32,000 bases of DNA, taken from the NCBI GenBank assembly GCA_900234795.1, contig LT962688.1, positions 2,160,001-2,192,000 of the forward strand, read 5' to 3'. Below, piece by piece: positions 12,421 to 28,612 of the stretch (position 1 is its first letter; each line of letters opens with the position of its first letter). This DNA is from Methylorubrum extorquens (lineage in GTDB: Bacteria > Pseudomonadota > Alphaproteobacteria > Rhizobiales > Beijerinckiaceae). Below the pieces are notes generated by a model. That model searched no databases, was not told the origin of the DNA, and was given only the letters and a program-made list of their open reading frames with translations. The position numbers were made by a program, and so were the translations under genes.

Positions 12421-13745
12421 GCCCGGCTCTGCCCGAGCAGGGCGTTGAGCAGGATGGCCGCGATCGCGGTGAGCAGGATCGGATCCTTCACGATCGGCCC
12501 GAACGCGTCGGGCACGGCGCGGAAGAAGAGCGGCTGCACGATCGGGATCAGGCCGATCCCCAACGAGGCGGCGATGATCAGCGCGTCGCGGCTGCCCGCG
12601 CGGGCGTAATCGACCTGGGCCAGGATGCGGATGCCGGTGGCTGCCACCATGCCGAACATCACCAGCGCCGCCCCGCCGAGCACCGGCTGCGGGATCGAGG
12701 CCGCCAGATAGGCGACCTTGGGCACGAGGCCGAGCACCAGCATGATCCCGCCGGCGGCCGCGCAGACCCAGCGGCTGTGCACGCCGGTGAGTCCGACGAG
12801 GCCGACATTCTGCGAATAGGACAGGTAGGGAAACGTGTTGAGCAGGCCGCCGATCAGCGTGCCGAGCGCGTCGGCGCGCAGGCCCCGGCGGATGTCCTCG
12901 GTCCCGATCTTGCGCCCGGTCATGACGCCGAGCGCCAGGAACATCCCGGTCGCCTCGATGAAGACGATCGTCATCACGAGGCACAGGATCAGGCAGGGCA
13001 CGAGGTGGAAGGTCGGCAGCCCGAACTGCAGGGGCAGCACCACCCGCAGCCACGGTTCGGCGCCCAGGCCCTCGAAGCTCGTCCAGCCGAGTGCCAGGGT
13101 GACGGCGTATCCGAGCCCGATCCCGAGGAGCACGGCGACGCGCCCGACGAAGCCCGGACCGAACCGGGCAATGAGCAGGGTCGCGGCGAGCACGCCCGCC
13201 GCCACCGCGACCGTGCCGGGCGCACCGAACGCGGCGGTGCCCGCACCCCCGCCCGCCCAGCCGACGGCGACGCGGGTGAGCGCGATGCCGATCATCAGGA
13301 GGATCGTGCCGGTCACGACCGGTGGGAAGAACCGCATCACCTGGCCGATGAAGGGCGTGACAAGGAGCCCGTAGAGGCCGCCGACGATCACCGCGCCGTA
13401 GATGCCGGTGAGGCCGACGCCGGGTATCGCCGCGATGGCGAGCAGCGGCTGGATCGCCACCGCGGTCACGCCCATGATGACGGGAAGCCGGATGCCGAAC
13501 GGGCCGATGCCCACCGTCTGGATCAGCGTGGCGATGCCGCAGGCGAACAAGTCGGCGTTGATGAGGAGCGCGATCTGGTCCTTCGGCAGGTGCAGCGCCC
13601 CGCCGACGATCAGCGGCACGGCGATGGCGTTGGCGTACATGACGAGCACGTGCTGCAAACCGAGCACGAACAGGCGCGGCGCGGGCGGCACCGCATCGAC
13701 GCCGTCGCGCGGCGGGCCGCCGGGAAGGGGATCGACCGGCCTCAT
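12336..13745 (-). CDS. Nucleobase:cation symporter-2 (NCS2, xanthine/uracil permease-type) transporter
   Basis: 469 aa. LGLQHVLVMYANAIAVPLIVG, multiple TM segments and SYSQNVGLVGLTGVHSRWV are typical NCS2 motifs. The start ATG overlaps the stop of the upstream monooxygenase gene (ATGA at 13742-13745). Confidence 0.88.
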   Translation of the reverse strand: MRPVDPLPGGPPRDGVDAVPPAPRLFVLGLQHVLVMYANAIAVPLIVGGALHLPKDQIALLINADLFACGIATLIQTVGIGPFGIRLPVIMGVTAVAIQPLLAIAAIPGVGLTGIYGAVIVGGLYGLLVTPFIGQVMRFFPPVVTGTILLMIGIALTRVAVGWAGGGAGTAAFGAPGTVAVAAGVLAATLLIARFGPGFVGRVAVLLGIGLGYAVTLALGWTSFEGLGAEPWLRVVLPLQFGLPTFHLVPCLILCLVMTIVFIEATGMFLALGVMTGRKIGTEDIRRGLRADALGTLIGGLLNTFPYLSYSQNVGLVGLTGVHSRWVCAAAGGIMLVLGLVPKVAYLAASIPQPVLGGAALVMFGMVAATGIRILAQVDYARAGSRDALIIAASLGIGLIPIVQPLFFRAVPDAFGPIVKDPILLTAIAAILLNALLGQSRAQPEAERSGSGIGASEPEIAASSRSSRS

Positions 13746-14788
13746 CCCTTCACTCGCGAAAACACCTGCGCGGCGAAGCGGGCCATCTCCGCCTCGAACG
13801 GCTGGAATTGCAGCATGAACAGCTCGATTCCCGCCGCGTGGAAGGCGCGGATGCGCTCGGCCACCCCATCGTAGCTGCCGACGAGCCCGGCCGCCGTGCC
13901 GCCGTTGGTGCCGACATGGTGCGCGGCCGCCGCATCGGTCTTGGCGAACATCACGCTCGCCGCGTCCGTGCGCGCCCGGGTGTCGGCGCGGATGGCCTCA
14001 TCGCGGCGGCTCAAGCTCAGAAGCCGGGCGAATTCGTCCTGCGCCTCGGCTTCCGTCTCACGGGCGATCACGAAGGCCGAGAGCCCGTAGCGCAGACGGC
14101 CCTGCGCGGCCGGGCGCCGGGCGACGTCGGCGATGAGATCGGCGACCGCGGCCAGCGGCTGGCCGTTGATGAACCAGACGTCGCCGTGATCGGCCACCAG
14201 CGCGCGGGCCGGCTCGGACTCGCCGCCGACATAGATCGCCGGCCGCGCCCGGTAAGTGCCCGCGGGCTTGAGCTGATAGTCCTCGACGCGGAAGTGCCGG
14301 CCCTCGTGGGTGACGCGCTCGCCCCGCAGCAACCGGTCCACCAGGGCGATCCATTCGCGGCCATAGGCGTAGCGCTCGTCATGGGCCGGGAACGGCAGGC
14401 CGGCCCGCTCGAATTCGGCGCGGTTCCAGGCGTTGACGAGGTTGAGGGCGAAGCGCCCCCGGCTGACCTGCTCGATCTGCAGCGCCATCTTGGCGAGCAA
14501 CACCGGATGGTAGAGCCCCGGCTTGATCGCCGCGATGATCTCGATCCGCTCGGTGAGCGCCGCCAGCGCGGCCGAGGCGGTCCAGGCCTCCAGCTGGTCG
14601 CGGGTCTCGTCGTAGGGGTTCACCGTATGCTGGGCGACGAGGACGGAATCGTAGCCGAGGCGCTCGGCCTCGAGCACGAGGGCGCGGTTGCGCGCCCAGG
14701 AGGCGTCGTGCGGCTCGTCCGGATCGTGGCGGGCGGCGCGGGAGCCGTGGACCGGCGCCCAGACGCCGAAGCGAAGCGGATGGCTCAT
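13742..14788 (-). CDS. Luciferase-like (LLM) flavin-dependent monooxygenase, SfnG/SsuD-clade-like
   Basis: Only the last 348 aa of track ORF 13742-16222 are real, starting at MSHPLRFGVWAPV (ATG 14788). Contains RGRFALNLVNAWNRAEFERAGLPFPAHDERYAYGREWIALVDRL and GRHFRVEDYQLKPAG. These resemble dimethylsulfone/alkanesulfonate monooxygenases as I recall them. Confidence 0.85.
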   Translation of the reverse strand: MSHPLRFGVWAPVHGSRAARHDPDEPHDASWARNRALVLEAERLGYDSVLVAQHTVNPYDETRDQLEAWTASAALAALTERIEIIAAIKPGLYHPVLLAKMALQIEQVSRGRFALNLVNAWNRAEFERAGLPFPAHDERYAYGREWIALVDRLLRGERVTHEGRHFRVEDYQLKPAGTYRARPAIYVGGESEPARALVADHGDVWFINGQPLAAVADLIADVARRPAAQGRLRYGLSAFVIARETEAEAQDEFARLLSLSRRDEAIRADTRARTDAASVMFAKTDAAAAHHVGTNGGTAAGLVGSYDGVAERIRAFHAAGIELFMLQFQPFEAEMARFAAQVFSRVKG

Positions 14789-14793
14789 CGCGC

Positions 14794-15762
14794 TCACCCG
14801 CGTCCTGCCGGCGGCTGCCAGAGCGATACGGCGGTGGCGTCGAGCCGGCGCGGGATCAGCCCGGCCTCGTGGAAGGTGTCGGCGATGGCCTGCTGCTCGG
14901 AGAGCGCGGCCCGATCGACCGCCTTGACCGCGTAGGAGCGCCGCTCGTTGACGGTGGCGACCACCGCCGGCGGCAGGTCTCCCCAGATCGGCGCCAGCAG
15001 CGCGACGGCCGCCGACGGGTTGGCCTTCACCCATTGTCCCGCCTCGACCAGGGCGGAAAAGACCGTGGCGACGACCTCGGGCTGCTCGGCGGCGAAGCTG
15101 TCGTTGACCGTGTAGTAGCGGTTGTAGCTCGACAGGCCGGTGGCGTCGGTCAGCACCCGCACCGGGCGCTTGGCCTGTACGATGGCCAGGAACGGATCCC
15201 AGATCGACCACGCCTCGATGCCGCCCTGCTCGAACGCCGCGAGCCCGTCCGCCGCCTCCAGATAGGCCGGGCGGATGTCGGCGAATCGCAGGCCCCCCCG
15301 CTTCAGCGCGCCCGCGAGGATGAAGTGGCAGCCCGAGCCCTTCGAGACGCCGACCGTACGGCCTTTCAGATCCGCGATCGTGCGGATCGGCGACTCGTCC
15401 GGCACGATGATCGCCTCGGCCTGCGGCGAACCGGCCTCCATAGCGTAGAAGGTCAGCGGGGCTCCGGCCGATTGGGTGAAGATCGGCACCGCGTCGGCCA
15501 CATCGGCGTGGAGATCGACCGCGCCGGTGTTCATCGGTTCGAGCACCTTGGTGAACAGGTGCCAGCTCACGCCGAGCCCTTGCGCGCCGAGCCGCTCCTC
15601 CAGGGTGCCCCGCGCCTTCAGCACGGTGAGGAGCGTCGAGGAGCGCTGATAGCTGAGCTTCACCGTCCGTCCGGCGCGGGCCGGACCGGAGCGACCGAGG
15701 ACGAGGCCGGCGGCGAGTGTGGCACTCGATGAAAGGGCGAAGTGGCGGCGGGTCAGGCTCAT
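14794..15762 (-). CDS. Periplasmic sulfonate-type (SsuA-like) substrate-binding protein
   Basis: Real start MSLTRRHFALSSSATLAAGLVLG (twin-arginine-like signal) at ATG 15762; the upstream part of track ORF 14794-16146 is out-of-frame. SBP-like body (TIADLKGRTVGVSKGSGCHF, EAWSIWDPF). The start overlaps the cytochrome c stop (ATGA at 15759-15762). Confidence 0.85.
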   Translation of the reverse strand: MSLTRRHFALSSSATLAAGLVLGRSGPARAGRTVKLSYQRSSTLLTVLKARGTLEERLGAQGLGVSWHLFTKVLEPMNTGAVDLHADVADAVPIFTQSAGAPLTFYAMEAGSPQAEAIIVPDESPIRTIADLKGRTVGVSKGSGCHFILAGALKRGGLRFADIRPAYLEAADGLAAFEQGGIEAWSIWDPFLAIVQAKRPVRVLTDATGLSSYNRYYTVNDSFAAEQPEVVATVFSALVEAGQWVKANPSAAVALLAPIWGDLPPAVVATVNERRSYAVKAVDRAALSEQQAIADTFHEAGLIPRRLDATAVSLWQPPAGRG

Positions 15763-16343
15763 CGGGTCTCCGTGTGCGCGGTGGGCCGGGCGGAAGGGCG
15801 AGCGGAGGGATTCTGCGGCGCGATGTCGGGGCGCGGATCGGCGGTGAAGCCGTCGCGGTTCGGCATGGCGACCCTGGGCAGGGAGGCCGCATCGAGGCTT
15901 GCCTCCTCCGGCAGCAGGCCGTTGAGGTGCAGCACATAGGCGCTGACCGCGTAGGTTTCGTCCGGGCTGAGCGATTGCGGCGCGTCGAACGGCATTGCCC
16001 GGCGCACGTAGTCGAACAGGGTCGTGGCATAGGGCCAGAAGCTGCCGACCGTGCGCAGGGGTTTTGCGCTCGCGAGGCTGCCCCGGCCGCCGGCCAGCGG
16101 CTCGGCGGCGGCCCCCTCGCCGCGGGCGCCGTGGCAGCCGGCGCAACGCGCGGCGAACAGGACCGCGCCGTCGCGCACGCTGCCGTGGCCGGGCGGCAGG
16201 CCCTGGCCGTCGGGCCGGACATCGATGTCCCAGGCGGCGATGGTCTCAGGGCTTGCTGGGCGGCCGATGCCGAGGGGGTCCGCCGCGGCCGGGCCGGCGA
16301 GGGTGAGGCTCAGGACGAGCGGGAGAAGCGCCTCAGGCCGCAT
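15759..16343 (-). CDS. Monohaem c-type cytochrome, SoxD/SorB-like partner of the molybdoenzyme
   Basis: Signal peptide MRPEALLPLVLSLTLAGPAAA. One CxxCH (CAGCH). WDIDVRPDGQGLPPG and FWPYATTLFDYVRRAMPF motifs, as in SoxD-type cytochromes (recollection). The start overlaps the upstream gene end by 11 nt. Confidence 0.8.
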   Translation of the reverse strand: MRPEALLPLVLSLTLAGPAAADPLGIGRPASPETIAAWDIDVRPDGQGLPPGHGSVRDGAVLFAARCAGCHGARGEGAAAEPLAGGRGSLASAKPLRTVGSFWPYATTLFDYVRRAMPFDAPQSLSPDETYAVSAYVLHLNGLLPEEASLDAASLPRVAMPNRDGFTADPRPDIAPQNPSARPSARPTAHTETR

Positions 16344-17553
16344 AGGTCACCGCCCCGTTCGCGCCGAGGCTCCAGCCGAACACCGCGTTGTTGTGGTAAA
16401 AGGAGCGGGTGCCGCGCACGGCGACCAAGGCCTCGCGACTCGGCTGCACGTAGCCGGTCTCGTCCCGCGCCCGGCTCAGCAGTTTGGCCGGTCCGCCCTC
16501 CCAACGCCACGGCAGGCGGAAGCGGGTGAAGCAGCGCGGCAGCACCGGCCCTTCCAGATGCGCCTCCGCCCAAGAGGCGCCGCCATCGGTCGAAACCTCG
16601 ACGCCGGCGATGCGCCCGCGCCCGGTCCAGGCGAGGCCCCGGATCTCGTGAAAGCCGGGCTCCCGAAGCTGCTGGCCGCCCGACGGCGCGGTGATGACGG
16701 ACTTGGCCTCCATCACGAAGGTGAATTGCCGCGCCGTGCCGTCCGGCATCAGGTCGGTGTATTTCGAGGTTTCCTCCCGCGTCTGGAACGGCCGGTCGCC
16801 GACCTTCAGGCGGCGTAGCCACTTGATGCTGAGGTTGCCCTCCAGCCCCGGCAGGAACAGCCGCAGGGGATAGCCCTGCTCCGGCCGCAGCCGCTCGCCG
16901 TTCTGCGCGTAGGCGAGGATCGCCCCGTCGAGCGCGTCGAGGGGGATCGAGCGGGTCATGGCGCAGGCATCCGCCCCCTCCGCCAGGATCCAGGCGGCGC
17001 CCGGCTGCACGCCGACCTCGGCGAGCAGGGTCGAGAGCTCGACGCCGGTCCACTCGGCGCAGGAGATCAGGCCGTGGCTGTCCTGCACCGTCCAGTCGGG
17101 CTTGGCCCCGAGCCAGGGCGTGTTGCCCGAACATTCGAGGAAATGCAGCCGTGAGACCGCGGGGAAGCGGAGGATGTCGTCCATGGTGAGGATCAGCGGG
17201 CGCGCGACGAGGCCGTGCACCACGAGGCGGTGCCGGTCCGGATCGATCGCCGGGATGCCGGCGTGGTGGCGCTCGTAATGCAGGCCGTTGGGCGTGAGGA
17301 TGCCGTGCAGGCCATGGAGCGGCGTCACCGTGGCCACCGCCCCGGGAAAGGGCGGCGGCAGCCGGGGATAGCGCGCAAGCGTCTCCCGCGGGCCGGGCCG
17401 GCCATAGCCCGGAGCGGTGGCGCCCTGCTCGCGGGTCCAGGGCGGCACGTCGAGGGGGCCTGCCTCCGCCAGGGCTCCGGTGGCGGCGCCCGCCCCGGCA
17501 AGCGAGCCGGCCAGGCGTAGGAAGGCGCGGCGGTTTTCCATGACCTCGCCCAT
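16333..17553 (-). CDS. Molybdopterin sulfite dehydrogenase / sulfite-oxidase-family enzyme (SoxC/SorA-type)
   Basis: Twin-arginine signal (M)ENRRAFLRLAGSLAGAGAATGALA. NGLHYERHHAGIP, HGLVARPLILTMDDILRFPAVSRLHFLECSGN and the conserved Cys ligand region. Start is ambiguous between ATG 17553 and ATG 17541. Confidence 0.9.
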   Translation of the reverse strand: MGEVMENRRAFLRLAGSLAGAGAATGALAEAGPLDVPPWTREQGATAPGYGRPGPRETLARYPRLPPPFPGAVATVTPLHGLHGILTPNGLHYERHHAGIPAIDPDRHRLVVHGLVARPLILTMDDILRFPAVSRLHFLECSGNTPWLGAKPDWTVQDSHGLISCAEWTGVELSTLLAEVGVQPGAAWILAEGADACAMTRSIPLDALDGAILAYAQNGERLRPEQGYPLRLFLPGLEGNLSIKWLRRLKVGDRPFQTREETSKYTDLMPDGTARQFTFVMEAKSVITAPSGGQQLREPGFHEIRGLAWTGRGRIAGVEVSTDGGASWAEAHLEGPVLPRCFTRFRLPWRWEGGPAKLLSRARDETGYVQPSREALVAVRGTRSFYHNNAVFGWSLGANGAVTYAA

Positions 17554-17554
17554 C

Positions 17555-18595
17555 CTATCGCGCGCTCGCCTCGGCCTGGGCCGCCTCGAAGAAGCGGGAG
17601 TCGAACAATCCCTCCGTCGGCGGCGTCTGCTCGCTGATGCCGAGCTTGGTCTGGAGGGCCAGCATCGCGCCGGTCGCCGCCACGATGGTGCGGGGATCGG
17701 CGACATACTGGGTCGCCGGCGAGGCGAGCGCGTTGCGCAGGGTCGCGGCGGTGACGATGCCCTTGCCGAGCGCGGCCTCCACCGCGGGAAGCGCCCGCTC
17801 GGGGTCGCGCTTGATCAGATCGACGGCCCGCACGATCGCCGAGACGAGGGTGCGCACGGCCGCCGGATTCTGCTCGAGGAAGGCGCCGCGCACCGCCACA
17901 ACGGTGCCGGGCTGGCCGGGAAACAGCTCGCTGCCGTTAGCGACGAGGCGGATCTGTGGGTTGCGCTCGCGGATGATGCTGAGGCCCGGTTCGCGCACCG
18001 TCGCGGCCTCGACCGCGCCGGCGAGGATCGCCTGCTGCGCCGCGTCGATGCCGAGTGTCAGGATCTGCACGTCGGCCGGATCGACCTTGTGGACCTCGCG
18101 CAGCCAGTAGGACAGGTTGGTGTAGGGGATCGAACCGGGCGGCTGCGTGGCGATCTTGGCCGGGCGGCCCGTCTCCTCCCGGAAGCGCCGAAAGGCGGCG
18201 GCCGGTGCCGTGCCGTCGGTGAGCGGTCCGGCGAGCTTGGCGCCCGCCACGAGCACGTTCTCGCCGATAGCGGTCGCCGCCACCACCCGCAGATCGACCC
18301 CGCGCGTCCGCCCGATCGCCACCGGCGTGATCCCGGCGACGTAGACATCGACCGTGCCGCTCGCCGCTGCCTGCACCGCGTTCGGCCCGGAATCGAACAG
18401 CGTTACGGTGGGCTTGAGCCCGCCGGCCCCGAGCCAGCCCTCCCGCTCGGCGACGAAGAGCGGCGCGGCACCGAGCACGGGGATTGCGCCGATCCGCACC
18501 GGCAGGGTCTGAGCCTGGCCTTGCGCCAAGGCGGCACCCGAGGCACCGAACAGCGCGAAGAGAAGAATTGCCCACCGGATGAAGTGCGATGACAT
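17555..18595 (-). CDS. Periplasmic substrate-binding protein (NMT1/SsuA/TauA-like), first gene of the minus-strand operon
   Basis: Start taken at MSSHFIRWAILLFALFGASGAALA (ATG 18595, signal peptide). LPVRIGAIPVLGAAPLFVAEREGW and GTVDVYVAG are typical of this SBP fold. The stop is 1 nt from the molybdoenzyme start. Confidence 0.8.
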   Translation of the reverse strand: MSSHFIRWAILLFALFGASGAALAQGQAQTLPVRIGAIPVLGAAPLFVAEREGWLGAGGLKPTVTLFDSGPNAVQAAASGTVDVYVAGITPVAIGRTRGVDLRVVAATAIGENVLVAGAKLAGPLTDGTAPAAAFRRFREETGRPAKIATQPPGSIPYTNLSYWLREVHKVDPADVQILTLGIDAAQQAILAGAVEAATVREPGLSIIRERNPQIRLVANGSELFPGQPGTVVAVRGAFLEQNPAAVRTLVSAIVRAVDLIKRDPERALPAVEAALGKGIVTAATLRNALASPATQYVADPRTIVAATGAMLALQTKLGISEQTPPTEGLFDSRFFEAAQAEASAR

Positions 18596-18643
18596 GATCG
18601 TTCTTTTATTTGCGAGATCGAGATAAGATCTATTCATATCCTT

Positions 18644-18658
18644 TTGTATTATGTACAA
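18644..18658. promoter_or_regulatory. Palindrome TTGTA-N5-TACAA in the AT-rich divergent control region (LysR-type T-N11-A-like box candidate)
   Basis: Read directly: cttTTGTAttatgTACAAgtc. The 145-nt divergent intergenic region (18596-18740) is very AT-rich against a GC-rich background. Confidence 0.3.
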
Positions 18659-18740
18659 GTCATGCTAATAGGCAAGACATCTTCGGGCGACAAGGCTAAA
18701 GCCCTGAGCAAATCGGTGATGGAGGACGAGGATCTTGGCG

Positions 18741-21149
18741 ATGCAGGACGAGAGCGAGCGTCGGCAGCGGCTGGGCGAGCACGTGGCTCCGGCCGGGCTC
18801 TACGCGGCGATCAAGGCGCGCCCCTTCCTCGGCAGCATCGCCTGCAGCCACGACCGGCTGGTGGCGGGGAGCTGGCACGAGATCGTGCTGACCTACGAGG
18901 TCGGCGCCTGCGGCATCGCCGACGGGGCGACTTTCAAGGCGACGTTCAAGTTCTACTCCGACTGGGCGCTGTTCCAGACCGCCGACCCGTCGGCGGCCAA
19001 CTACGTCAGCGCGGAATACGAGGCCGGCCCGCTGCTGCCAGGGCAGTCGCCCGCGACCGTGCAGTCGCTCAGCGTGCGCTTCGACCAGAAGGGCCACGAG
19101 CGCCCGTTCCAGAAGGCCGTGATCGTCGATGTGGTCGACGGCTATCTCAATGCGGGCGACCGCATCGTCATCCGGCTGGGCGACCGGCAGGCTGGGGGGC
19201 CGGGCACCCGCGTCCAGACCTTCGTCGAGGACGGCTTCCGCTTCCGCTGCTACGTCGACCCGCTCGGCACCTCGCGCTACGTGGCGGTGCCGGGTGATCC
19301 GGTCATCGCGATCGCTGCCGGGCCGCCGGAGCGGATTCAGCTCGGGGCCCCCCGCTTCGTGGCGGAGGGCGTCGCGCCGCCCCTGACCGTGGCCCTGCTC
19401 GACCGCTGGGGCAACGTCGCCCGCGACCTCGGCGGCCCGCTCGACATCGCCGCCACCGCGGAGGGGCGCGAGGTCTATCGCCGCCGTCACGCCCTGCCGG
19501 AGCAGGGCTGGGCAACGCTGCGGGTCGAGGATCTACCGCCCGTCTCGGGCGAACTGCGCATCGGTGCCGCGCGTCCCGGCGGCCGGGACGTGGCGGAGGG
19601 GGTGGCCTTCGTCGCCGGGCTCGCCGACGCACCCGTGCCCCGGGCGCTCTACGGCGATCTCCACGTCCACGCCCACGATACGGTGGGCACCAACAGTCCG
19701 GCCTACAACGCAGCCTATGCCCGCGACGTAGCGGGGGTCGATGTCTACGGCTACACCGCCAACGACTTTCAGATCACCGACGAAGGCTGGCGTGAGGGCG
19801 TCGCGGTGACGGCCGGCTTCGACGTGCCCGGCCGCTTCGTCGCCTATTCCGTGCAGGAATGGTGCGGCAGCTCGACCGCGGGCGGCGACCATCAGGTGCT
19901 GTTCCTCGGCGACGATCCGCCCGGCTTCCCCTTCAACGAGCGGGGCGAGCACAACCGCACCTTCCTGTGGAACGAGAGCATGGGCGGCACCGGCGTCCAG
20001 GTCGGGCGCTGGCCGGTCGAGGATCTGTGGGCGGCCTACGCGCACGATCCGGAGAACCACCTCGTCATCCCGCATGTCGGCGGGCGCCGCTACATCCCAG
20101 ACTGGCACCATCCGGAGTTGGAACGCCTCGTGGAGATCGCCTCCGCCTGGGGACAGTTCGACTGGCTCTACCGGGACGTGATCGCCCGCGGCTACCGGCT
20201 CGGCGTCTGTGCCAACGGCGACGAGCACCGCGGACGGCCGGGCGGCGGCGCGCCGGGCGTGCAGGTGTTCGGCGTGCGCGGCGGGCTCACCGGCATCCTG
20301 GCAGACAGCCTCGACCGCCGCGCGGTCGGCCGCGCCTTGCGGGCGCGCCACACCTTCGCGACGACGGGCGAGCGCAGCGCCCTGCTGGTCCGCTGCGGCC
20401 CGCACCGCCAGGGCGACGCCTTCACGCACGAGGGCGCTGCGCGGCTCGACTATCACTTCCTCGGCGAGGCCGGCTGGGAGGAACTGACCGCCCACGATCA
20501 TACCGGCGAGATCTGGCGGCGCGACCTCCACGCCGAATGCGGATTCTCCGAGCGCCTCGTGCGCCTGCGCTTCGGCGGTGCGCGCATCCGCGACCGCTAT
20601 CGCTGGGCGGCCTGGGAGGGACGCATCCGCATCCTCAACGGCACGATCCGCCGCATCGTCCCCCAGGGCTTCGAGCATGCCGAGGAGACGGCGTGGCGTT
20701 CAGGCCCGACCGAGATCGCCTTCCGCTCCGAGACTTACGGCGACAGCGATGCCATCGAGATCGATATCGGTGGTCTCGAGGAATGCCGCATCCTAGTCGA
20801 GGGCACGATCGGCGGCTTCGTGAAGGTCGGCGATCCGCGCCGGCCCGCCCCCTTCGTCCATGCTCCGGATTTCCGTTTCGAATGCACCGGCCGCGAATTG
20901 ATCGCGGCGGGCGCCCTGCAGCGCGAGCTTGGCGGGGCTGGGCTGTTCGTGGCGCTGGAGCGCCTGACGGAAGCGCCGCTGCCGCGGGACGTCGCCGGGC
21001 ATATCCAGGTGGAGCCGGAGAACGCCCCGTTCGGCTTCCGGCCGGTCTACTTCTCGGGCCGCCAGCGCGACGGCAGCCGCGTCTGGTCCTCGGCACAGTT
21101 CATCACCTTCGCGGACGGGGGCGCGGCGAAGCCCATCTCACCCAAATGA
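18741..21149 (+). CDS. Large (802 aa) uncharacterised protein: N-terminal ~300-aa beta-rich domain, central PHP/CehA-McbA-like metal-dependent hydrolase core, C-terminal ~250-aa unknown domain
   Basis: ATG 18741 preceded by GAGGA (18728-18732). Core motifs: YGDLHVHAHD (nt 19650-19679), VQEWCG, VIPHVGG, CANGDEHRGRPGGG, RHTFATTGER. Together these resemble the His/Asp/Glu metal ligand set of PHP-fold phosphoesterases. Coding is clear from the long ORF, codon bias and non-junk composition. Function is unknown. Confidence 0.8.
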   Translation: MQDESERRQRLGEHVAPAGLYAAIKARPFLGSIACSHDRLVAGSWHEIVLTYEVGACGIADGATFKATFKFYSDWALFQTADPSAANYVSAEYEAGPLLPGQSPATVQSLSVRFDQKGHERPFQKAVIVDVVDGYLNAGDRIVIRLGDRQAGGPGTRVQTFVEDGFRFRCYVDPLGTSRYVAVPGDPVIAIAAGPPERIQLGAPRFVAEGVAPPLTVALLDRWGNVARDLGGPLDIAATAEGREVYRRRHALPEQGWATLRVEDLPPVSGELRIGAARPGGRDVAEGVAFVAGLADAPVPRALYGDLHVHAHDTVGTNSPAYNAAYARDVAGVDVYGYTANDFQITDEGWREGVAVTAGFDVPGRFVAYSVQEWCGSSTAGGDHQVLFLGDDPPGFPFNERGEHNRTFLWNESMGGTGVQVGRWPVEDLWAAYAHDPENHLVIPHVGGRRYIPDWHHPELERLVEIASAWGQFDWLYRDVIARGYRLGVCANGDEHRGRPGGGAPGVQVFGVRGGLTGILADSLDRRAVGRALRARHTFATTGERSALLVRCGPHRQGDAFTHEGAARLDYHFLGEAGWEELTAHDHTGEIWRRDLHAECGFSERLVRLRFGGARIRDRYRWAAWEGRIRILNGTIRRIVPQGFEHAEETAWRSGPTEIAFRSETYGDSDAIEIDIGGLEECRILVEGTIGGFVKVGDPRRPAPFVHAPDFRFECTGRELIAAGALQRELGGAGLFVALERLTEAPLPRDVAGHIQVEPENAPFGFRPVYFSGRQRDGSRVWSSAQFITFADGGAAKPISPK

Positions 21150-21438: not shown

Positions 21439-22662
21439 ATGTCGCAGATCGATGCAGGCTGGGGCGCCGGCCCGAGTGGACGCTACGAGGAACTCGCGGG
21501 TCGCTTCCGGCCGGTCTTCGGCGAGATCCGTTCCACCGCGGTCGCGCGGGACGCCGAGCGGCGCTTGCCGCATGCCGAACTCGGTTGGCTGAAGGAAGCG
21601 GGCTTCACCACCCTGCGTCTGCCCGCCGAGTCGGGCGGGCATGGCGCGAGCCTGCCCGAACTCTTCAACCTGCTGATCGAGCTGTCGGCGGCCGATTCCA
21701 ACGTTACCAATGCGCTGCGCGCGCATTTCGGCTTCACCGAGGACGTGCTGACCGCCGCCTCGGCGGAATGGCGTACGCGATGGATCGCCCGGCTCGCCGC
21801 GGGCGAGACGGTCGGCAGCGGCGTGTCCGAGACGGGGCCGGCCAAGGTCGGGCAGTTCGACACGGTGGTGCGCCGACGCGGCGACGAGCGAGTGGTGGAT
21901 GGCCGGAAATTCTACACGACCGGCGCGCTCTTCGCCGACTGGATCCACCTTTCGGCCCAGGACGAGGACGGCGCGTCCGTGGTCGCCGCGGTGCCGACGC
22001 GAGCGCCCGGCGTCACGATCGAGGACGATTGGGATGGCTTCGGGCAGGCCCTGACCGCGAGCGGCACCGCCCGCTTCGAGGGCGTCGTGCTGGCACCGGA
22101 GCTGATCAAGCCGGAGACGGTGCGCTTTCCCTACGCCATGGCCTTCTTCCAGCTCGTGCATCTGGCAACGCTCGCCGGCATCGCTCGGGCGGCGGCCGAG
22201 GATGCGGCGCGGCTGGTAGCGGCGCGCACCCGGGTCTACAGCCACGGGAATGCCGACCGCACGGCGGACGATCCGCAAGTTCTGGCTGTGGTGGGCCGCG
22301 TGCGCGGCAATGCCTATGCAGCCGGTGCCCTCGTGCTGAAGGCGGCCGAGGCGGTGCAACGCGCGGCGGAGGCGGTGCAGCTGGGCGGGCGCGAAGCGGC
22401 GGAGCCGATCACGGCCCTCGCCGATGTCGAGGTCAACCAAGCCGTCGCCGTGGTGACCAACCTCGTATTGGAGGCGACCACGGTGCTGTTCGACGCCCTC
22501 GGTGCGTCCGCCGTGAAGGCCGAGGACGGCCTTGATCGCTACTGGCGCAACGCACGCACCATCGCCTCACACAACCCGCGGATCTACCGCGAGCGCAGCG
22601 TCGGCGCCTTCGCGGTCAACGGCACGCGTCCACCCAGGGAGTTCCGCGTCGGTACGGCCTAA
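21439..22662 (+). CDS. Acyl-CoA-dehydrogenase-fold oxidoreductase, SfnB/DszC-like (sulfur-acquisition type)
   Basis: ATG 21439 preceded by GAGGGA. 407 aa. ERRLPHAELGWLKEAGFTTLRLPAESGG, FYTTGALFADWI, DRYWRNARTIASHNPRIYRERSVG. The C-terminal motif is what I recall from SfnB-family proteins. Confidence 0.8.
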   Translation: MSQIDAGWGAGPSGRYEELAGRFRPVFGEIRSTAVARDAERRLPHAELGWLKEAGFTTLRLPAESGGHGASLPELFNLLIELSAADSNVTNALRAHFGFTEDVLTAASAEWRTRWIARLAAGETVGSGVSETGPAKVGQFDTVVRRRGDERVVDGRKFYTTGALFADWIHLSAQDEDGASVVAAVPTRAPGVTIEDDWDGFGQALTASGTARFEGVVLAPELIKPETVRFPYAMAFFQLVHLATLAGIARAAAEDAARLVAARTRVYSHGNADRTADDPQVLAVVGRVRGNAYAAGALVLKAAEAVQRAAEAVQLGGREAAEPITALADVEVNQAVAVVTNLVLEATTVLFDALGASAVKAEDGLDRYWRNARTIASHNPRIYRERSVGAFAVNGTRPPREFRVGTA

Positions 22663-22804
22663 GGACCGCAACATTACACCTAGCATGAACGGATCGGGTG
22701 CCTCGCGCCGCGTCGGCACAGGCCACGACACCAGCGACCGCCGCCCCAATACACCAATCTTCTCCCGGATGCGGCTCGATTCACTCGTTTCTGCTCACGC
22801 CTTC

Positions 22805-22820
22805 GTTCTTTAAAAAGAAC
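22805..22820. promoter_or_regulatory. Perfect 16-bp palindrome GTTCTTTAAAAAGAAC followed by TTGACT (22828-22833), upstream of groES; candidate operator plus -35
   Basis: Read directly. The half-site AAAGAAC recurs at 22835-22841. No CIRCE element (TTAGCACTC-N9-GAGTGCTAA) is present between 22663 and 22924. Confidence 0.3.
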
Positions 22821-22924
22821 AATTCCGTTGACTTAAAGAACGGAGGCGGACACCCTGTCGGTATTGGACAAGGGGCTCCGGCCGGCGCGCCAGCCGCAGC
22901 CCAAACGACGGGAGTTCCTGAAGG

Positions 22925-23215
22925 ATGGCGTTTCGACCCCTGCACGACCGCGTGCTGCTGCGCCGCATTGAGAGCGACGAGCGGACGAAGGGTGGCATCA
23001 TCATCCCCGACACCGCGAAGGAGAAGCCGCAGGAGGGCGAGGTCGTGGCCGTCGGACCCGGTGCCCGCGACGACCAGGGCCGCGTCACCGCGCCGGACGT
23101 CAAGACCGGCGACCGCGTGCTGTTCGGCAAGTGGTCCGGCACGGAGATCAAGGTCGACGGCCAAGACCTCCTGATCCTCAAGGAATCCGACATTCTCGGC
23201 GTGATCACCGCCTGA
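22925..23215 (+). CDS. groES: Co-chaperonin GroES
   Basis: [49 protein letters not shown]...: canonical GroES, 96 aa. Confidence 0.95.
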
Positions 23216-23226
23216 GCAAGCTCTGA

Positions 23227-24876
<1,650 letters not shown>

Positions 24877-24885
24877 TCGCCTGAA

Positions 24886-24918
24886 GGCCCGAGGTCCGGC
24901 GGCGCCGGACCTCGGGCC
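24886..24918 (+). terminator. GC-rich hairpin immediately downstream of groEL
   Basis: GGCCCGAGGTCCGGCG (24886-24901), G, CGCCGGACCTCGGGCC (24903-24918): perfect 16-nt inverted repeat starting 10 nt after the stop. No U-tract follows. Confidence 0.5.
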
Positions 24919-25258
24919 CCTGGCTGCCGACAGTATTGATGTCCCCTTCCCCATCCTAAGGTGCCGCGAGGCGATCCCTAACGATCCTCAGGATCCCACG
25001 CGGTCCCGAGAGCCGTATCCGACCTGATTGCATCAGGCCGGCGTCTCTAGGTCGTTGTTGTGACGCGCATTCTTTCGACGAGCCGGTGGCCACTTCGTCG
25101 GAATGCGCTCTAGAGCCCCCTTCGAGGCCTGCCTTGTGCATCGGTACCTCGTGGATGGGGCGAAGGATTGGATCAAGGCGATTCCGGCCGGGTGTCCCCG
25201 CCGGCACCTTCCGTCACGGTCCATCCGCCGGATGGGCCCGCTCCGATGAGATCGACCG

Positions 25259-25531
25259 ATGACTGCTTCGCAGGACTTCCGCCGCAGGATCGAGGGCTAC
25301 AGTCTCACGACGGCCGAGATCCTCTATCACCTGCCCGACTTCCCGCATCTCCTTCAAACCTTCGTCTGGCAGAACCACGACCTGTTCCCGCAATTCCCGG
25401 AGCTGAAGCGGTTCCTCGACTTCTGGCAGGAGACGTTGGACGGCCCGCTGCACTCGGTCAGGGTGATGCATGCCCGCCTGATCCGGCCGACCGAACTCAA
25501 GGCGCTCTCGGCCGAGTTTCATCTGCACTGA
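25259..25531 (+). CDS. Usg-like family small protein (alphaproteobacterial Usg family)
   Basis: 90 aa. GYSLTTAEILYHLPDFPHLLQTFVWQNHDLFPQFPELKRFLDFWQETLDGPLHSVRVMH matches my recollection of the Usg-like family consensus. Confidence 0.8.
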   Translation: MTASQDFRRRIEGYSLTTAEILYHLPDFPHLLQTFVWQNHDLFPQFPELKRFLDFWQETLDGPLHSVRVMHARLIRPTELKALSAEFHLH

Positions 25532-25622
25532 AGGGCATACGGTACGGCGGGAACGATAATGCCCGGGCCGACCCGCGAAGAAAACGATGGTCCTCTGTGG
25601 CTATACGGAGGAGGACTGCATT

Positions 25623-25859
25623 CTAAAGTGATGATCTCGAGCCGAAATGTGTCGTCTTCGACTTGAGCGCGCGGCTGGATAGAAGGGATGACACTTCGAT
25701 CACGTTGCGGAGGAGGTAGACGATGCCGAACGGCTTGGCGACACGCATCTGCCCCTCGTCGGCCGAGGCCGGGCCCGCCACGAATCCAGCCAACGCAGCA
25801 CCCGCGCAGAGGGCGGCGGTTTGCCGGCGCGTGAGCAGGCCGCGTCGCTTGCCAGTCAT
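25623..25859 (-). pseudogene. Possible decayed N-terminal fragment of a periplasmic substrate-binding protein
   Basis: MTGKRRGLLTRRQTAALCAGAALAGFVAGPASADEGQMRVAKPFGIVYL... is a twin-arginine-like signal plus the first SBP beta-strand. It then degenerates into low-GC sequence with stops. No full-length frame can be reconstructed. Confidence 0.25.
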
Positions 25860-26094
25860 GTCGATCCCTGCTGTGACAATATATGGTCATCTAGCGGAGT
25901 TGTGCCGCAAGATTAATCAAACTTTTTGCCTCTTACGCAATGATGTTTCAGCGGAAATATACTGTTGAAGATAGCCAATTCAAAGCATAGCTATGACTGG
26001 CAGTCGCGTTTTGAGGAAAAATCATTACTCCCCCCGATCGGAAATTCGTCAATTGCGCGGTGCGCGATACGCCGCGTGGGGAGCGCCGCCCCCG

Positions 26095-26268
26095 TCAGGC
26101 CTCGTCGCGCATTCGGGCGTCCGGGATCCGGCTCGGCCAGCAGACGAGGTGGGGCGCGAGCCATTCGTGGCTCAGCATCGCGCCGGACGCGAGCGGCAGC
26201 GGCCCGGCTTCGGCAGGCAGCGCCGCGTTCCGCAGGAGCGTGACGAGCCAAGTGAAAAGCTGTCTCAT
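26095..26268 (-). CDS. Small hypothetical ORF (57 aa) translationally coupled to the oxygenase gene
   Basis: ATG 26268 overlaps the upstream stop (ATGA at 26265-26268). MRQLFTWLVTLLRNAALPAEAGPLPLASGAMLSHEWLAPHLVCWPSRIPDARMRDEA. GC-rich third positions. No recognisable family; could be a gene fragment. Confidence 0.3.
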   Translation of the reverse strand: MRQLFTWLVTLLRNAALPAEAGPLPLASGAMLSHEWLAPHLVCWPSRIPDARMRDEA

Positions 26269-27288
26269 GCGGCCTGCGCCTCGGCGATGAGCAGGTCGGC
26301 ATAGTGGGCTGCCGCCACGTCGGGATGCGAGCGCAGTCGACCCTTGAGGTAATTGCGGCCGACCTCGCGGAAGAGCGGGTTCTCCGGGTCGCTCGCCGCG
26401 CCCCGTGCCTGCTCCGCCAGCGCGGCGGGCAGATCGAGCAGCGGGACGGTGGCGTCGTGTCGCGCGCCGAGGAAGAAGGCGATGGAGAGCCGGTCCCGGC
26501 CTGCATCCGGCGTCACCACCCGGTGGATTGTGGCCCGCAGGTAGCCGTTCGAGGCGAGTTCCAGCAGTTCGCCGACATTGACCACGAAGGCCCCCTCGAC
26601 CGGTGCGACCGCGATCCAGCGGCCGTCGGCATCCTCGACCTCCAGGCCGCCTACGCCGTCCTGCACCAAGAGGGTGAGAAAGCCGCTGTCCTTGTGGGCG
26701 CCGACGCCCTGGTTGTCGCCGGTGGCCTCGCGGCCGGGATAGCGGATGATCTTGATGTGCTGGTTGGGTGCGCCGGCGTAGATCGGCGCGAAGACGTCGG
26801 TCTCCTGCCCAAGCGCCAGGGCGAAGGCCTGCAGCAGGCGGATGCCGATATCTGTGACCGCCTCCTGCCAGGCCAGGAGCCCGACCCGGAGCCCCGGCAG
26901 GGCGGCCGGCCACTGGTTCGGCCCCTGGGAGGCGGGTCCATGCCGGGAGGCCGGGTTCACGCGGCCGCGCCGCCCGCTCGGCGCTGATATCGAACTGCTC
27001 GCGCCAGTCGGCCCGCCCACGGGTGATCTCCTGGCCGGCCTCGGTGTAGCCTCGGAAATGGGGCGAGTTCACCATCGCGACCGCCCGCTTCTCCTCCGCC
27101 GGCAGGGCAAAGAAGTGCCGTGCCAGCGCCTGGACGCCGGCGATCTGCGAGGCCGGAATGCCGTGTCCGACGAGATAAAAGAAACCGGTCTCGCGGGCGG
27201 CCGTCCGCAGCTCCGCGAGGAAGGCGTCGCGCTCGCTCCCACCCGCATCGAGGCGGGCGAGATCGAGGATGGGGAGCGTGTGGCTCAT
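26265..27288 (-). pseudogene. 2-oxoglutarate/Fe(II)-dependent oxygenase (isopenicillin-N-synthase family) with one frameshift (as assembled)
   Basis: The N-terminal part (MSHTLPILDLARLDAGGSERDAFLAELRTAARETGFFYLVGHGIP...) is in the frame of track ORF 26095-27402. The C-terminal part (QGPNQWPAALPGLR...GVGAHKDSGFLTLLVQD...YLRATIHRV) is in ORF 26265-27020. The junction reads CGC CTC CCA GGG instead of CGC CTC CAG GGG CCG AAC CAG TGG: one extra C in a CCC run (plus-strand GGG 26927-26929). The 1024-nt span is 1023+1. The H-x-D...H iron triad (HKD, HRV) is present. Confidence 0.8.
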
Positions 27289-27289
27289 C

Positions 27290-28612
27290 TCAGGCCGCCC
27301 GCGCCAGCGTTCCGGCGGCGGCCAGCGCCTGATCGAGATCGGCCAGGATGTCGTCGATGTGCTCCAGCCCAACCGAGAGGCGCACGTAACCGTCGGTGAC
27401 ACCGGTGGCGCGCTGCTCGGCCGGCGTCAGCTGCGAGTGGGTGGTCGAGGCCGGGTGGATCGCAAGGCTGCGCACATCGCCGATATTGGCGACGTGGTAG
27501 AACAGCTTGAGCGCGTCAATGAAGCGGCGCCCGGCGGCGCGGCCCGCCGCCAGCTCGAACCCGACGAGGCCGCCATAGCCTCCCCTCAGGATGCGGTCGG
27601 CCCGCTCCCGCGCAGCGCCGGTTTGAGCGGAGGGATGGATCACGCGGGCGATCTCCGGCCGACGCCCGAGCCAGTCGGCGACCGCTTGCGCATTGCGGCT
27701 GTGGCGCTCGATCCGCAGGGGAAGCGTCTCGATCCCCTGGAGCGTCAGGAAGGCGTTGAGCGGCGAGACGGCGGGACCGAGATCGCGCAGGAGCCGCACC
27801 CGTGCCCGCAAGGCATAGGCGACCGGGCCGATCGGCCGCGCGGCCTCGGTCCAGACCGCGCCATGATAGCTCGGATCCGGCGTGTTCAGGGCGGGCTGGC
27901 GATCGGGATAGGCCGCCCAGTCGAAGCGCCCGCCGTCGACGATGGCTCCGCCGATGGCGATGCCGTGGCCGCCGAGATACTTCGTGGTCGAATAGACGAC
28001 GATTGCCGCGCCATGGTCGAGAGGCCGTGCCAACAGGGGCGCCGCGGTGTTGTCGACGATGAGCGGGATGCCGAGCGGCCGGCCGATCGCCGCCACCTCG
28101 GCGATGGGGAAGACCGTGAGCTTCGGGTTCGGCAGGGTCTCGGCGTAGTAGGCCCGCGTCCGCCCATCGGTCGCGCGGGAGAAATTGTCCGGGTCGGCGG
28201 GATCGACAAAGCGGACCTCGATGCCCTGCTCGGCCAGCGTGTGGGCGAACAGGTTCCATGTGCCGCCGTAGAGGTCGGTGGAGGAGACGATGTTGTCACC
28301 TGCCCGCGCGAGGTTCTGGACGCTCAGCGCGGAGGCCGCCTGACCGGAGGCGAGAGCCAGCGCGGCCGCGCCGCCCTCCAGCGCGGCGAGGCGCTGCTCC
28401 AGCACGTCGACGGTGGGATTGGTGACCCGGGTGTAGATGTTGCCGAGTTCCTTGAGCGCGAACAGGCTCTCCGCGTGATCGGTGTCGCGGAACTGGTAGG
28501 AGGTGGTCTGGTGGATCGGCACTGCGACCGATCCGGTCTGAGGATCGGCGCGCCAACCGGCATGGAGCGCGAGCGTTTCGGCGTAGACTGAAGCGGGCGT
28601 CTGGTCCGACAT
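27290..28612 (-). CDS. metY: O-acetylhomoserine sulfhydrylase / aminocarboxypropyltransferase (PLP-dependent, Cys/Met metabolism family)
   Basis: 440 aa. TLALHAGWRADPQTGSVAVPIHQTTSYQF, NPTVDVLEQRLAALEGG, the PLP-lysine region STTKYLGGHG, IHPASTTHSQL. GGGAG Shine-Dalgarno upstream of ATG 28612. The stop is 1 nt before the oxygenase start. Confidence 0.9.
   Translation of the reverse strand: MSDQTPASVYAETLALHAGWRADPQTGSVAVPIHQTTSYQFRDTDHAESLFALKELGNIYTRVTNPTVDVLEQRLAALEGGAAALALASGQAASALSVQNLARAGDNIVSSTDLYGGTWNLFAHTLAEQGIEVRFVDPADPDNFSRATDGRTRAYYAETLPNPKLTVFPIAEVAAIGRPLGIPLIVDNTAAPLLARPLDHGAAIVVYSTTKYLGGHGIAIGGAIVDGGRFDWAAYPDRQPALNTPDPSYHGAVWTEAARPIGPVAYALRARVRLLRDLGPAVSPLNAFLTLQGIETLPLRIERHSRNAQAVADWLGRRPEIARVIHPSAQTGAARERADRILRGGYGGLVGFELAAGRAAGRRFIDALKLFYHVANIGDVRSLAIHPASTTHSQLTPAEQRATGVTDGYVRLSVGLEHIDDILADLDQALAAAGTLARAA

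Follow-up and report, generated by a model that had tools for sequence, protein, structure and literature searches.

Among described proteins, the systems closest to the one considered here are CehA and McbA. Four histidines (His313, His315, His453 and His495) are essential in CehA, McbA relies on essential histidines in a predicted PHP-like domain, and both proteins carry signal peptides, McbA being periplasmic (PMC8292978). A second group of relatives is formed by the phosphoesterases of solved structure that contain a PHP (polymerase and histidinol phosphatase) domain, namely BVU_3505 (3e38), Cv1693 (2yb1), RNase AM (7ug9), PsfC (7rty), EndoQ, Pol III/PolC and PolX, and a third by DUF3604 (PF12228), an uncharacterised PHP-like family. 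Here we describe a gene of Methylorubrum extorquens coding for a protein of 802 amino acids (aa), located in a stretch of 32,000 nucleotides (nt) (assembly GCA_900234795.1, contig LT962688.1, positions 2,160,001 to 2,192,000), hereafter the window, to which all coordinates refer unless another locus is named. The protein is very probably a PHP-type metallohydrolase acting on a solute brought in by a partner importer. Since its gene is almost always found beside an importer for sulfate- or sulfonate-like anions, it probably is an undescribed sulfur-extracting enzyme. The gene and its parts are:

18741..21149, + strand: complete gene for the three-part 802-aa protein (clean translation, 98% identical M. 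extorquens match, 282 GTDB relatives)
18828..19310, + strand: N1 beta-domain, aa 30-190 (all-beta in the AlphaFold2 (AF2) model; conservation)
19311..19628, + strand: N2 immunoglobulin (Ig)-like beta-sandwich, aa 191-296 (sandwich modelled by AF2 with high predicted local distance difference test (pLDDT) scores)
19629..20384, + strand: predicted PHP-fold catalytic core, aa 297-548 (AF2 model of the domain, Foldseek, conservation in 61 sequences)
20385..21116, + strand: C-terminal all-beta region, aa 549-792 (secondary structure and pLDDT of the AF2 model)

The first-pass annotation of the window had recognized one long, clean open reading frame (ORF) without an evident signal peptide, and both statements hold. 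The ORF translates without stops from an ATG to 802 aa plus the stop codon (a TTG two codons upstream gives an 804-aa version of the same ORF in the program-made ORF list), and its GC content at third codon positions (0.90, for a window GC of 68%) is typical of a genuine gene. The best relative, another M. extorquens protein, is 98% identical. More than 1,500 homologs were found, most of those among the matches listed being full length; also among the matches listed are about 110 full-length proteins from outside the Methylobacterium group, mostly from Betaproteobacteria, at 64-70% identity. GTDB species genomes hold 282 relatives and the wider superfamily comprises 2,600 clusters at 50% identity. 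The family spans soil, plant-associated, methylotrophic and cyanobacterial lineages, and is also found on plasmids of Klebsiella pneumoniae and Pantoea. The ORF is real, intact and strongly conserved across relatives. Neither a signal peptide nor a transmembrane segment was detected in the 802-aa protein (maximum Kyte-Doolittle(15) value of 1.14 in the first 60 aa), which is consequently predicted to be cytoplasmic.

A PHP/CehA-like metallohydrolase core had been proposed from motifs which are all present in the translation: YGDLHVHAHD (H308/H310), VQEWCG (E373), VIPHVGG (H445), NGDEHRG (D494/H496) and RHTFATTGER. Of the three profiles suggested at that stage, only DUF3604 matched the 802-aa protein, and marginally so, over 42 of 591 model positions (aa 513-554 only, 24.7 bits for a cutoff of 20.4). 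The Pfam PHP model (PF02811) gave no match at E <= 1, and the CehA/McbA model (NF038032) reached 16.3 bits (E 0.005) for a cutoff of 80, so that the window protein is no member of that family; this last match covers aa 441-597 and runs beyond the end of the PHP core. The wider superfamily carries the signal further, as 34 of 34 diverse relatives match DUF3604 (best E-value 1.3e-21) over two core stretches, about 110-223 and 371-435, of the 591-position model, and 29 of the 34 match the CehA/McbA domain model (best E-value 7e-16). Because these members match both models, the link to DUF3604 and CehA/McbA is real; NCBI and UniRef indeed name some orthologs "DUF3604 domain-containing protein". 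Querying the PDB by sequence and by profile, with the 802-aa protein and with alignments of the family and of the core, returned spurious matches only and no PHP protein.

Structure comparison assigned the core to the distorted (beta/alpha)7-barrel fold of PHP proteins. The full-length AF2 model (predicted template modelling score (pTM) 0.78) is all-beta over residues 30-300, alpha/beta over 300-545 and all-beta again over 545-790, and its whole-chain Foldseek search against the PDB gave uninformative matches to generic multi-Ig, GH2 or complement-like proteins (template modelling (TM) score of about 0.13). A separate AF2 model of aa 293-552, built from a diverse alignment of 30 sequences, reached a pLDDT of 87.6 and a pTM of 0.89. 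All nine PDB matches of this domain model with E <= 0.001 are PHP proteins (TM 0.43-0.58), headed by 3e38 (TM 0.58, E 1e-8) and including PsfC, RNase AM, Cv1693, EndoQ and the PHP domains of Pol III and PolC, while PolX and histidinol phosphatase matched with weaker E-values. For a family of known function, which the first-pass annotation had said would overturn its reading if it matched the whole protein, the Pfam, NCBIfam and PDB sequence searches gave no match.

Conservation points to the same conclusion. Across 61 diverse sequences (26-89% identity), the core residues D306, R328, N341, D342, E373, H445, E465, S468, D494 and R499 are invariant (61/61) and H308 (59/61), H496 (60/61) and D383 are nearly so, whereas H310 is present in all 26 orthogroup sequences and replaced by Gln in paralogs. 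Cys375, which adjoins the metal-site Glu, is invariant across the orthogroup. In the domain model these conserved residues lie at, or just past, the C-termini of beta-strands. Judged by conservation and by the model, the putative PHP ligand set is present, with HxH on the first strand and Glu, His and Asp-x-His on subsequent ones, and the ligands that had been proposed from the motifs are indeed invariant or nearly so. The modelled fold and these putative ligands support membership of the core in the PHP superfamily, and we infer from them that the protein is metal dependent and hydrolytic.

By published residue numbers alone, CehA H313/H315/H453/H495 fall close to H308/H310/H445/H496 of the window protein, which suggests that CehA, too, has some 300 residues ahead of its catalytic domain and follows the same overall layout. 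The two systems share a predicted PHP-like catalytic domain and an occurrence on mobile elements. They differ in that CehA and McbA have signal peptides while the window protein has none and is paired with an importer, and in that their substrates are neutral xenobiotic carbamates whereas the context here is that of a small sulfur-supply anion. DUF3604, the sole Pfam family matched, leaves the N1, N2 and C-terminal domains outside its model. The solved PHP enzymes have the same barrel fold (TM 0.44-0.58, Foldseek probability 1.00) with His, Asp and Glu at strand ends, but they share only 11-16% identity with the core and no relationship detectable by sequence or profile. They are also phosphoester-acting domains of 200-350 residues, whereas the window protein carries some 550 further residues in beta-domains, as well as the fixed Cys beside the metal-site Glu.

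These additional parts had been described as matching nothing nameable, and indeed N1, N2 and the C-terminal part gave no Pfam or NCBIfam family match and no confident PDB sequence match; the flanking domains belong to no described family. N1 is as conserved as the catalytic core (mean conservation of 0.78 versus 0.72 in the clade of about 800-aa proteins), with 16 near-invariant positions, among them D74, W75, Q79, R121, P122, G139, D140, D148, Q159, T160, F161, E163 and D173. N2, which is weakly similar to the Ig-like domains 6c29 and 3d33, is the most variable part (0.45), except for a D221-x-W223-G224-N225 motif. The C-terminal region (conservation 0.59-0.63; invariant G558, G613, W625, G627, T665, G667 and S784) is modelled as what probably are two beta-sandwich domains. 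Comparison of N1, N2, C1 and C2 with hhalign revealed no internal duplication (probabilities <1%). In our reading, the protein represents a distinct and widespread PHP family of three-part architecture, whose substrates probably form a new class.

A paralogous clade of about 730 aa (P0271-P0300; about 30% identity) from Chloroflexi, Tectomicrobia and Methylomirabilota shows fixed switches at three core positions, with Gln instead of H310, Ser instead of C375 and His instead of Y338. The one locus of this clade that was examined (L092, 8001-10214) lies among genes for Opp-type peptide transporters, MlrC, an amidohydrolase and an aminotransferase. A function shared with the orthogroup was considered and rejected on account of this peptide/amide catabolic context and of the different fixed active-site residues; the function of this clade probably differs. 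In another representative of the superfamily (P0264, 1194 aa), TylF/Methyltransf_24 and Methyltransf_12 domains are fused C-terminal to the N-domain and PHP core.

To which solute the enzyme is tied is suggested by its neighbours. We surveyed 80 loci from GTDB species genomes plus further loci from elsewhere, clustering the flanking ORFs without prior assumptions, annotating the main clusters and tabulating each locus. The conserved partner across about 100 loci is an anion importer and not the sulfite dehydrogenase operon that adjoins the gene in the window. In about 52 of 86 loci the gene is immediately preceded, on its own strand, by one for a DASS symporter (median gap of 93 nt), and a divergent GntR/UTRA regulator in about 40 of the 86, or a Crp-type regulator in about 11, mostly accompanies DASS loci. 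SsuA/NMT1-type ATP-binding cassette (ABC) systems adjoin the gene in Oxalobacteraceae, alphaproteobacterial methylotrophs, Methylovorus, Hyphomicrobium, a gammaproteobacterial metagenome-assembled genome and an uncultured lineage, as well as on plasmids of Klebsiella, Pantoea and Rhizobium, and in some of these loci the genes overlap. In 8 loci of Comamonadaceae, Bordetella and other Burkholderiales, the adjoining gene codes for a TctC receptor and is mostly directly upstream. In three cyanobacteria the ortholog (52-55% identity) comes fourth, behind genes for an Sbp-like binding protein and two permeases, the flanks being different; in Leptolyngbya NK1-12, the one cyanobacterial locus scanned, these proteins score 275 bits as Sbp/CysP (cutoff 155.5), 337 as CysT (246) and 351 as CysW (329).

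A further arrangement is carried by an IncFIB/IncFII conjugative plasmid of K. pneumoniae (p1_020151, NZ_CP043587.1, 3783-13914), on which a GntR gene is followed, divergently, by genes for an ATPase, a binding protein, a permease and the enzyme (52% identical ortholog), with IS1 on both sides. Its binding protein exceeds the SsuA_fam cutoff (174.7 versus 163.5), which others miss narrowly. The cassette recurs in identical form on at least 14 plasmids of K. pneumoniae and on others of Pantoea. Rhizobium plasmids bear the same GntR, ABC and enzyme unit beside an NtaA/DmoA monooxygenase gene and a gene of the acyl-CoA dehydrogenase (ACAD) family. No further catabolic genes were found to be conserved beside the gene among the clustered flanking ORFs, which implies that the products must be directly usable. 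The ortholog on Azospirillum brasilense plasmid p3 adjoins a zinc/metal ABC uptake cluster.

The composition of the protein also points to sulfur. Past the initiator, the 802-aa protein contains a single methionine in 801 residues (0.12%), a depletion with a chance probability of 3e-7 at a methionine frequency of 2.2% and of 0.003 at 1%. Median methionine content is 0.37% in relatives of at least 64% identity, 0.38% in those of 49-61% identity and 0.7-1.0% in the clade of about 30% identity. Non-sulfur neighbours contain 2-3% methionine, and the depletion recurs in the Klebsiella, Ralstonia and Leptolyngbya orthologs. Relative to neighbours, depletion is thus found for methionine (0.12%, orthogroup median of 0.37%) and not for cysteine. 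The gene moreover stands beside an island of sulfur-economised proteins, whose composition was counted in a sister M. extorquens strain (L001):

about 21439-28612 (12699-21709 in L001): sulfur-economised protein island

The island comprises an SfnB-like protein (1-2 Met, 0 Cys), a 2-oxoglutarate-Fe oxygenase (1 Met, 0 Cys), a 440-aa Cys/Met-metabolism pyridoxal phosphate enzyme (27290-28612, - strand; 0 Met, 0 Cys) and a hypothetical protein of 142 aa (0 Met, 0 Cys), and the divergent operon likewise codes for periplasmic binding proteins poor in sulfur amino acids. Composition and island context indicate probable expression under sulfur scarcity, and we infer induction by sulfur starvation. 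A literature search on the sulfur-starvation response of Methylobacterium retrieved nothing relevant and no expression data.

Downstream of the gene, the island also holds GroES and GroEL paralogs (22925-23215 and 23251-24884, both + strand; 14185-16133 in L001). In the sister strain, neither GroEL (540 aa) nor GroES (96 aa) contains Met or Cys past the initiator; Leu or Phe occupies canonical Met positions and the GGM tail is replaced. The groEL paralog of the window contains at least 2 frameshifts, representing either a pseudogene or assembly indels. No report of a sulfur-free GroEL was found in a literature search.

Based on the ligand set, the invariant arginines, the shared cargo of the importers, the composition and the island, we therefore propose metal-activated hydrolysis of a sulfuryl anion. 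That the protein is a cytoplasmic PHP-type hydrolase which makes the sulfur of a small imported oxyanion available for assimilation is, in our estimate, an even call. The gene would be the enzyme half of a small uptake-and-cleavage module, in which a dedicated importer (SsuA-type ABC, CysP/T/W-type sulfate/thiosulfate ABC, DASS symporter or TctC system, depending on the lineage) takes up a small, probably dianionic, sulfur oxyanion. In our interpretation, what these importers share across lineages is the carriage of small sulfate-, sulfonate- or dicarboxylate-like anions, and the many invariant arginines would suit an anionic substrate. The substrate could be a short monoester of sulfate, a sulfo-carboxylate, sulfamate, or else thiosulfate or an S-sulfonate. 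The putative His/Asp/Glu metal centre (H308, H310, E373, H445, D494, H496) would activate water and cleave the sulfuryl group, possibly assisted by the clade-specific invariant Cys375 and several invariant arginines, while the conserved N1 domain probably helps to build the substrate pocket. The products, sulfate or possibly sulfite or sulfide, would be assimilated during sulfur limitation. The first-pass annotation had guessed at a sulfur-related, ester-type substrate and had pointed to co-occurrence with sulfur genes as a check; sulfate- and sulfonate-type importers do stand beside orthologs in several phyla, and together with the methionine depletion they strengthen that guess.

Several points weigh against this proposal. 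No close relative of the protein has been characterised. The PHP enzymes of established activity are for the most part phosphoesterases, the nearest named relatives, CehA and McbA, cleave carbamate esters, and our literature search found no precedent for sulfuryl hydrolysis by a PHP fold. The active-site loops are of low confidence in the full-length AF2 model. Cysteine is not depleted in the 802-aa protein (9 residues, 1.1%), and low methionine is common to the whole family, which weakens the depletion argument. Carboxylates are the usual cargo of DASS and TctC transporters, which are not sulfur-specific. Most SsuA-like binding proteins at these loci score at or under the curated cutoff, the one in the window reaching 92 bits for an SsuA_fam cutoff of 163.5, and on A. 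brasilense plasmid p3 (7046-10331) the gene has a divergent GntR gene and no adjacent transporter.

The proposed role has parallels in other folds. SoxB thiosulfohydrolase, a dimanganese enzyme of the metallophosphoesterase fold in the Sox system, hydrolyses a sulfuryl group from an S-sulfonate and is a conceptual precedent; it resides in the periplasm, its substrate is protein-bound and its role lies in energy metabolism. The window protein differs from SoxB in its unrelated fold, its predicted cytoplasmic location and its proposed assimilatory role. The known sulfatases, whether formylglycine arylsulfatases, Fe(II)/2-oxoglutarate AtsK-type enzymes or metallo-beta-lactamase (MBL)-type alkylsulfatases, resemble the window protein in the role proposed for it and differ in fold. 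No C/S-x-P-x-R formylglycine motif is visible in the 802-aa translation, which matches none of the Pfam sulfatase, TauD and MBL families, and any sulfatase activity of the protein is hypothetical. Under sulfur limitation, sulfatases release sulfate from sulfur esters (PMC3920027). Searches of the literature for a published function of the family (DUF3604, or a PHP domain with sulfatase or sulfur starvation) found none, and the single paper that mentioned DUF3604 was unrelated.

A bolder version of the proposal, which we regard as possible and would advance only tentatively, is that the orthogroup founds a new class of sulfuryl hydrolases: PHP-fold, metal-dependent, cytoplasmic enzymes with an essential Cys375, spread as a mobile importer-plus-enzyme cassette that includes the one on Klebsiella plasmids. 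The enzyme would then be either a thiosulfate or S-sulfonate hydrolase, yielding sulfate plus sulfide or a thiol, or a monomethyl-sulfatase. The latter is a long-orphan activity reportedly found in Hyphomicrobium and said to be listed as EC 3.1.6.16, and serves here as a lead only. The enrichment of the gene in methylotrophs would fit such an activity; a literature search on methyl sulfate with Hyphomicrobium returned nothing relevant.

Among the rival explanations, the one that survives best, though we hold it to be unlikely, is a phosphoesterase acting on an imported phosphorylated or phosphonate-like anion to free phosphate, the sulfur context being a coincidence or a result of transporter promiscuity. 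All structural neighbours of the core are phosphoesterases or nucleases (3e38, the Cv1693 pAp phosphatase, RNase AM, histidinol phosphatase, polymerase PHP domains), the NMT1/SsuA-like binding proteins weakly match phosphonate/phosphite binding models and the GntR regulator resembles PhnF. Yet no pst, phn or pho genes are conserved near the gene at the surveyed loci, the cyanobacterial partner passes its curated cutoff as a sulfate and not as a phosphate transporter, and both the methionine depletion and the sulfur-economised island point to limitation by sulfur rather than phosphorus.

A CehA/McbA-like ester or amide (carbamate-type) hydrolase, which would obtain carbon or nitrogen from an imported natural anion (a carboxylate ester, a carbamate or a ureido compound), seems slightly less probable still. 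The CehA/McbA model is the only named functional family tied to the superfamily, the essential histidines of CehA fall at matching residue numbers, DASS and TctC systems typically carry carboxylates and the paralogs of about 730 aa lie among peptide/amide catabolism genes. Nevertheless, the window protein reaches 16 bits where that model demands 80 and has no signal peptide where CehA and McbA are secreted. The orthogroup also departs from those paralogs at fixed positions (H310/Q, C375/S, Y338/H), and no conserved carbon or nitrogen catabolic genes lie nearby, sulfate and sulfonate importers being found instead.

A nucleotide phosphatase that aids sulfate assimilation indirectly, by removing 3'-phosphoadenosine 5'-phosphate (pAp) or hydrolysing adenosine 5'-phosphosulfate (APS) or its 3'-phosphorylated form (PAPS), and does not act on an imported solute, is suggested by the structural neighbour Cv1693 (2yb1), which we take from established literature to be a PHP-family pAp phosphatase, and by the tie to sulfate transporter genes in cyanobacteria. 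We consider it very improbable, for it leaves unexplained four importer families, including a sulfonate type whose products bypass PAPS, 550 extra residues with a conserved N1 domain, and the mobile, IS1-flanked transporter-plus-enzyme cassette on Klebsiella plasmids. Least probable of all is a non-catalytic metal-binding, regulatory or structural protein merely co-occurring with transporters: function is read here from sequence and model, and the second His of the HxH motif (H310) gives way to Gln in the paralog clade, but the full set of PHP-type ligand positions and many Arg, Asp and Asn residues are invariant across very large evolutionary distances and the gene is translationally coupled inside transporter operons at some loci.

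Around the gene, the window contains the following features:

17555..18595, - strand: divergent NMT1/SsuA-family periplasmic binding protein, 346 aa (Pfam NMT1_2; SsuA_fam 92 bits)
16333..17541, - strand: SoxC-type sulfite dehydrogenase, second gene of the divergent operon (TIGR04555, 565 bits, cutoff 420)
18596..18740, no strand: divergent control region, 145 nt (GC 43%; seven-species alignment)
21439..22662, + strand: downstream SfnB-like gene of the acyl-CoA-dehydrogenase family (TIGR04022, 281 bits, below the equivalog cutoff of 431)

The layout described in the first-pass annotation was recovered here, that is a divergent sulfur operon (the binding protein gene, then the SoxC-type gene), an AT-rich gap of exactly 145 nt and an SfnB-like gene downstream. 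Of the partnership it had drawn from this layout, the link to the binding protein and importer is conserved, whereas SoxC and SfnB accompany the gene mainly in Methylobacterium/Methylorubrum. The window binding protein has a single Met and no Cys. Its orthologs (57-97% identity) are encoded divergently from the gene in Methylobacterium, Methylocystis, Methylosinus and Methyloferula, and in Alphaproteobacteria it is this protein that forms the conserved partner. SoxC co-occurs only at Methylobacterium-group loci and at one Methylosinus locus; genes of the luciferase-like monooxygenase (LLM) or SfnB type are found near the gene in Methylorubrum, Rhizobium and Paraburkholderia, those similar to SfnB near the orthologs of the latter two. 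Membership of a sulfite dehydrogenase regulon everywhere was consequently rejected, as SoxC, LLM and SfnB genes co-occur mainly in one clade. Further along the divergent strand, an 826-aa ORF (13742-16222, - strand) is a high-GC artefact of which only the C-terminal 350 residues or so are real; they belong to an SfnG-like luciferase-family monooxygenase (Pfam match at residues 484-800), and in the sister strain separate monooxygenase, binding-protein and cytochrome c genes are annotated in this region.

The control region has a GC content of 43%, falling to 33% in its core, compared with 68% for the window. Blocks conserved in seven Methylobacterium/Methylorubrum species are an AGATCT-N5-AGATCT-like palindrome, GCATTATG, GCAAGAC and GCTATAGC. 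Two palindromes conserved among Methylobacterium species are candidate operator sites: GCTATAGC and AAGATCTnTTnAGATCT, the latter with a degenerate right half in the window. One sigma-70-like site (TTGCCT-16-CATAAT, 18675-18648, - strand; 0.1 expected) could serve the divergent operon, and a common regulator for both divergent transcription units is plausible.

Independently of the enzyme, the sulfur-economised island, whose chaperonin is free of Met and Cys, strikingly illustrates elemental sparing. For the 802-aa protein, a member of a large and strongly conserved family, the function read from context yields a specific proposal of sulfur scavenging with a short list of candidate substrates, which makes it a good target for function discovery. 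If true, the proposal would establish a new fold and mechanism for sulfuryl-group hydrolysis, would extend PHP chemistry past phosphoesters and carbamates, and would explain how bacteria use a sulfur source that lies outside current pathway maps.

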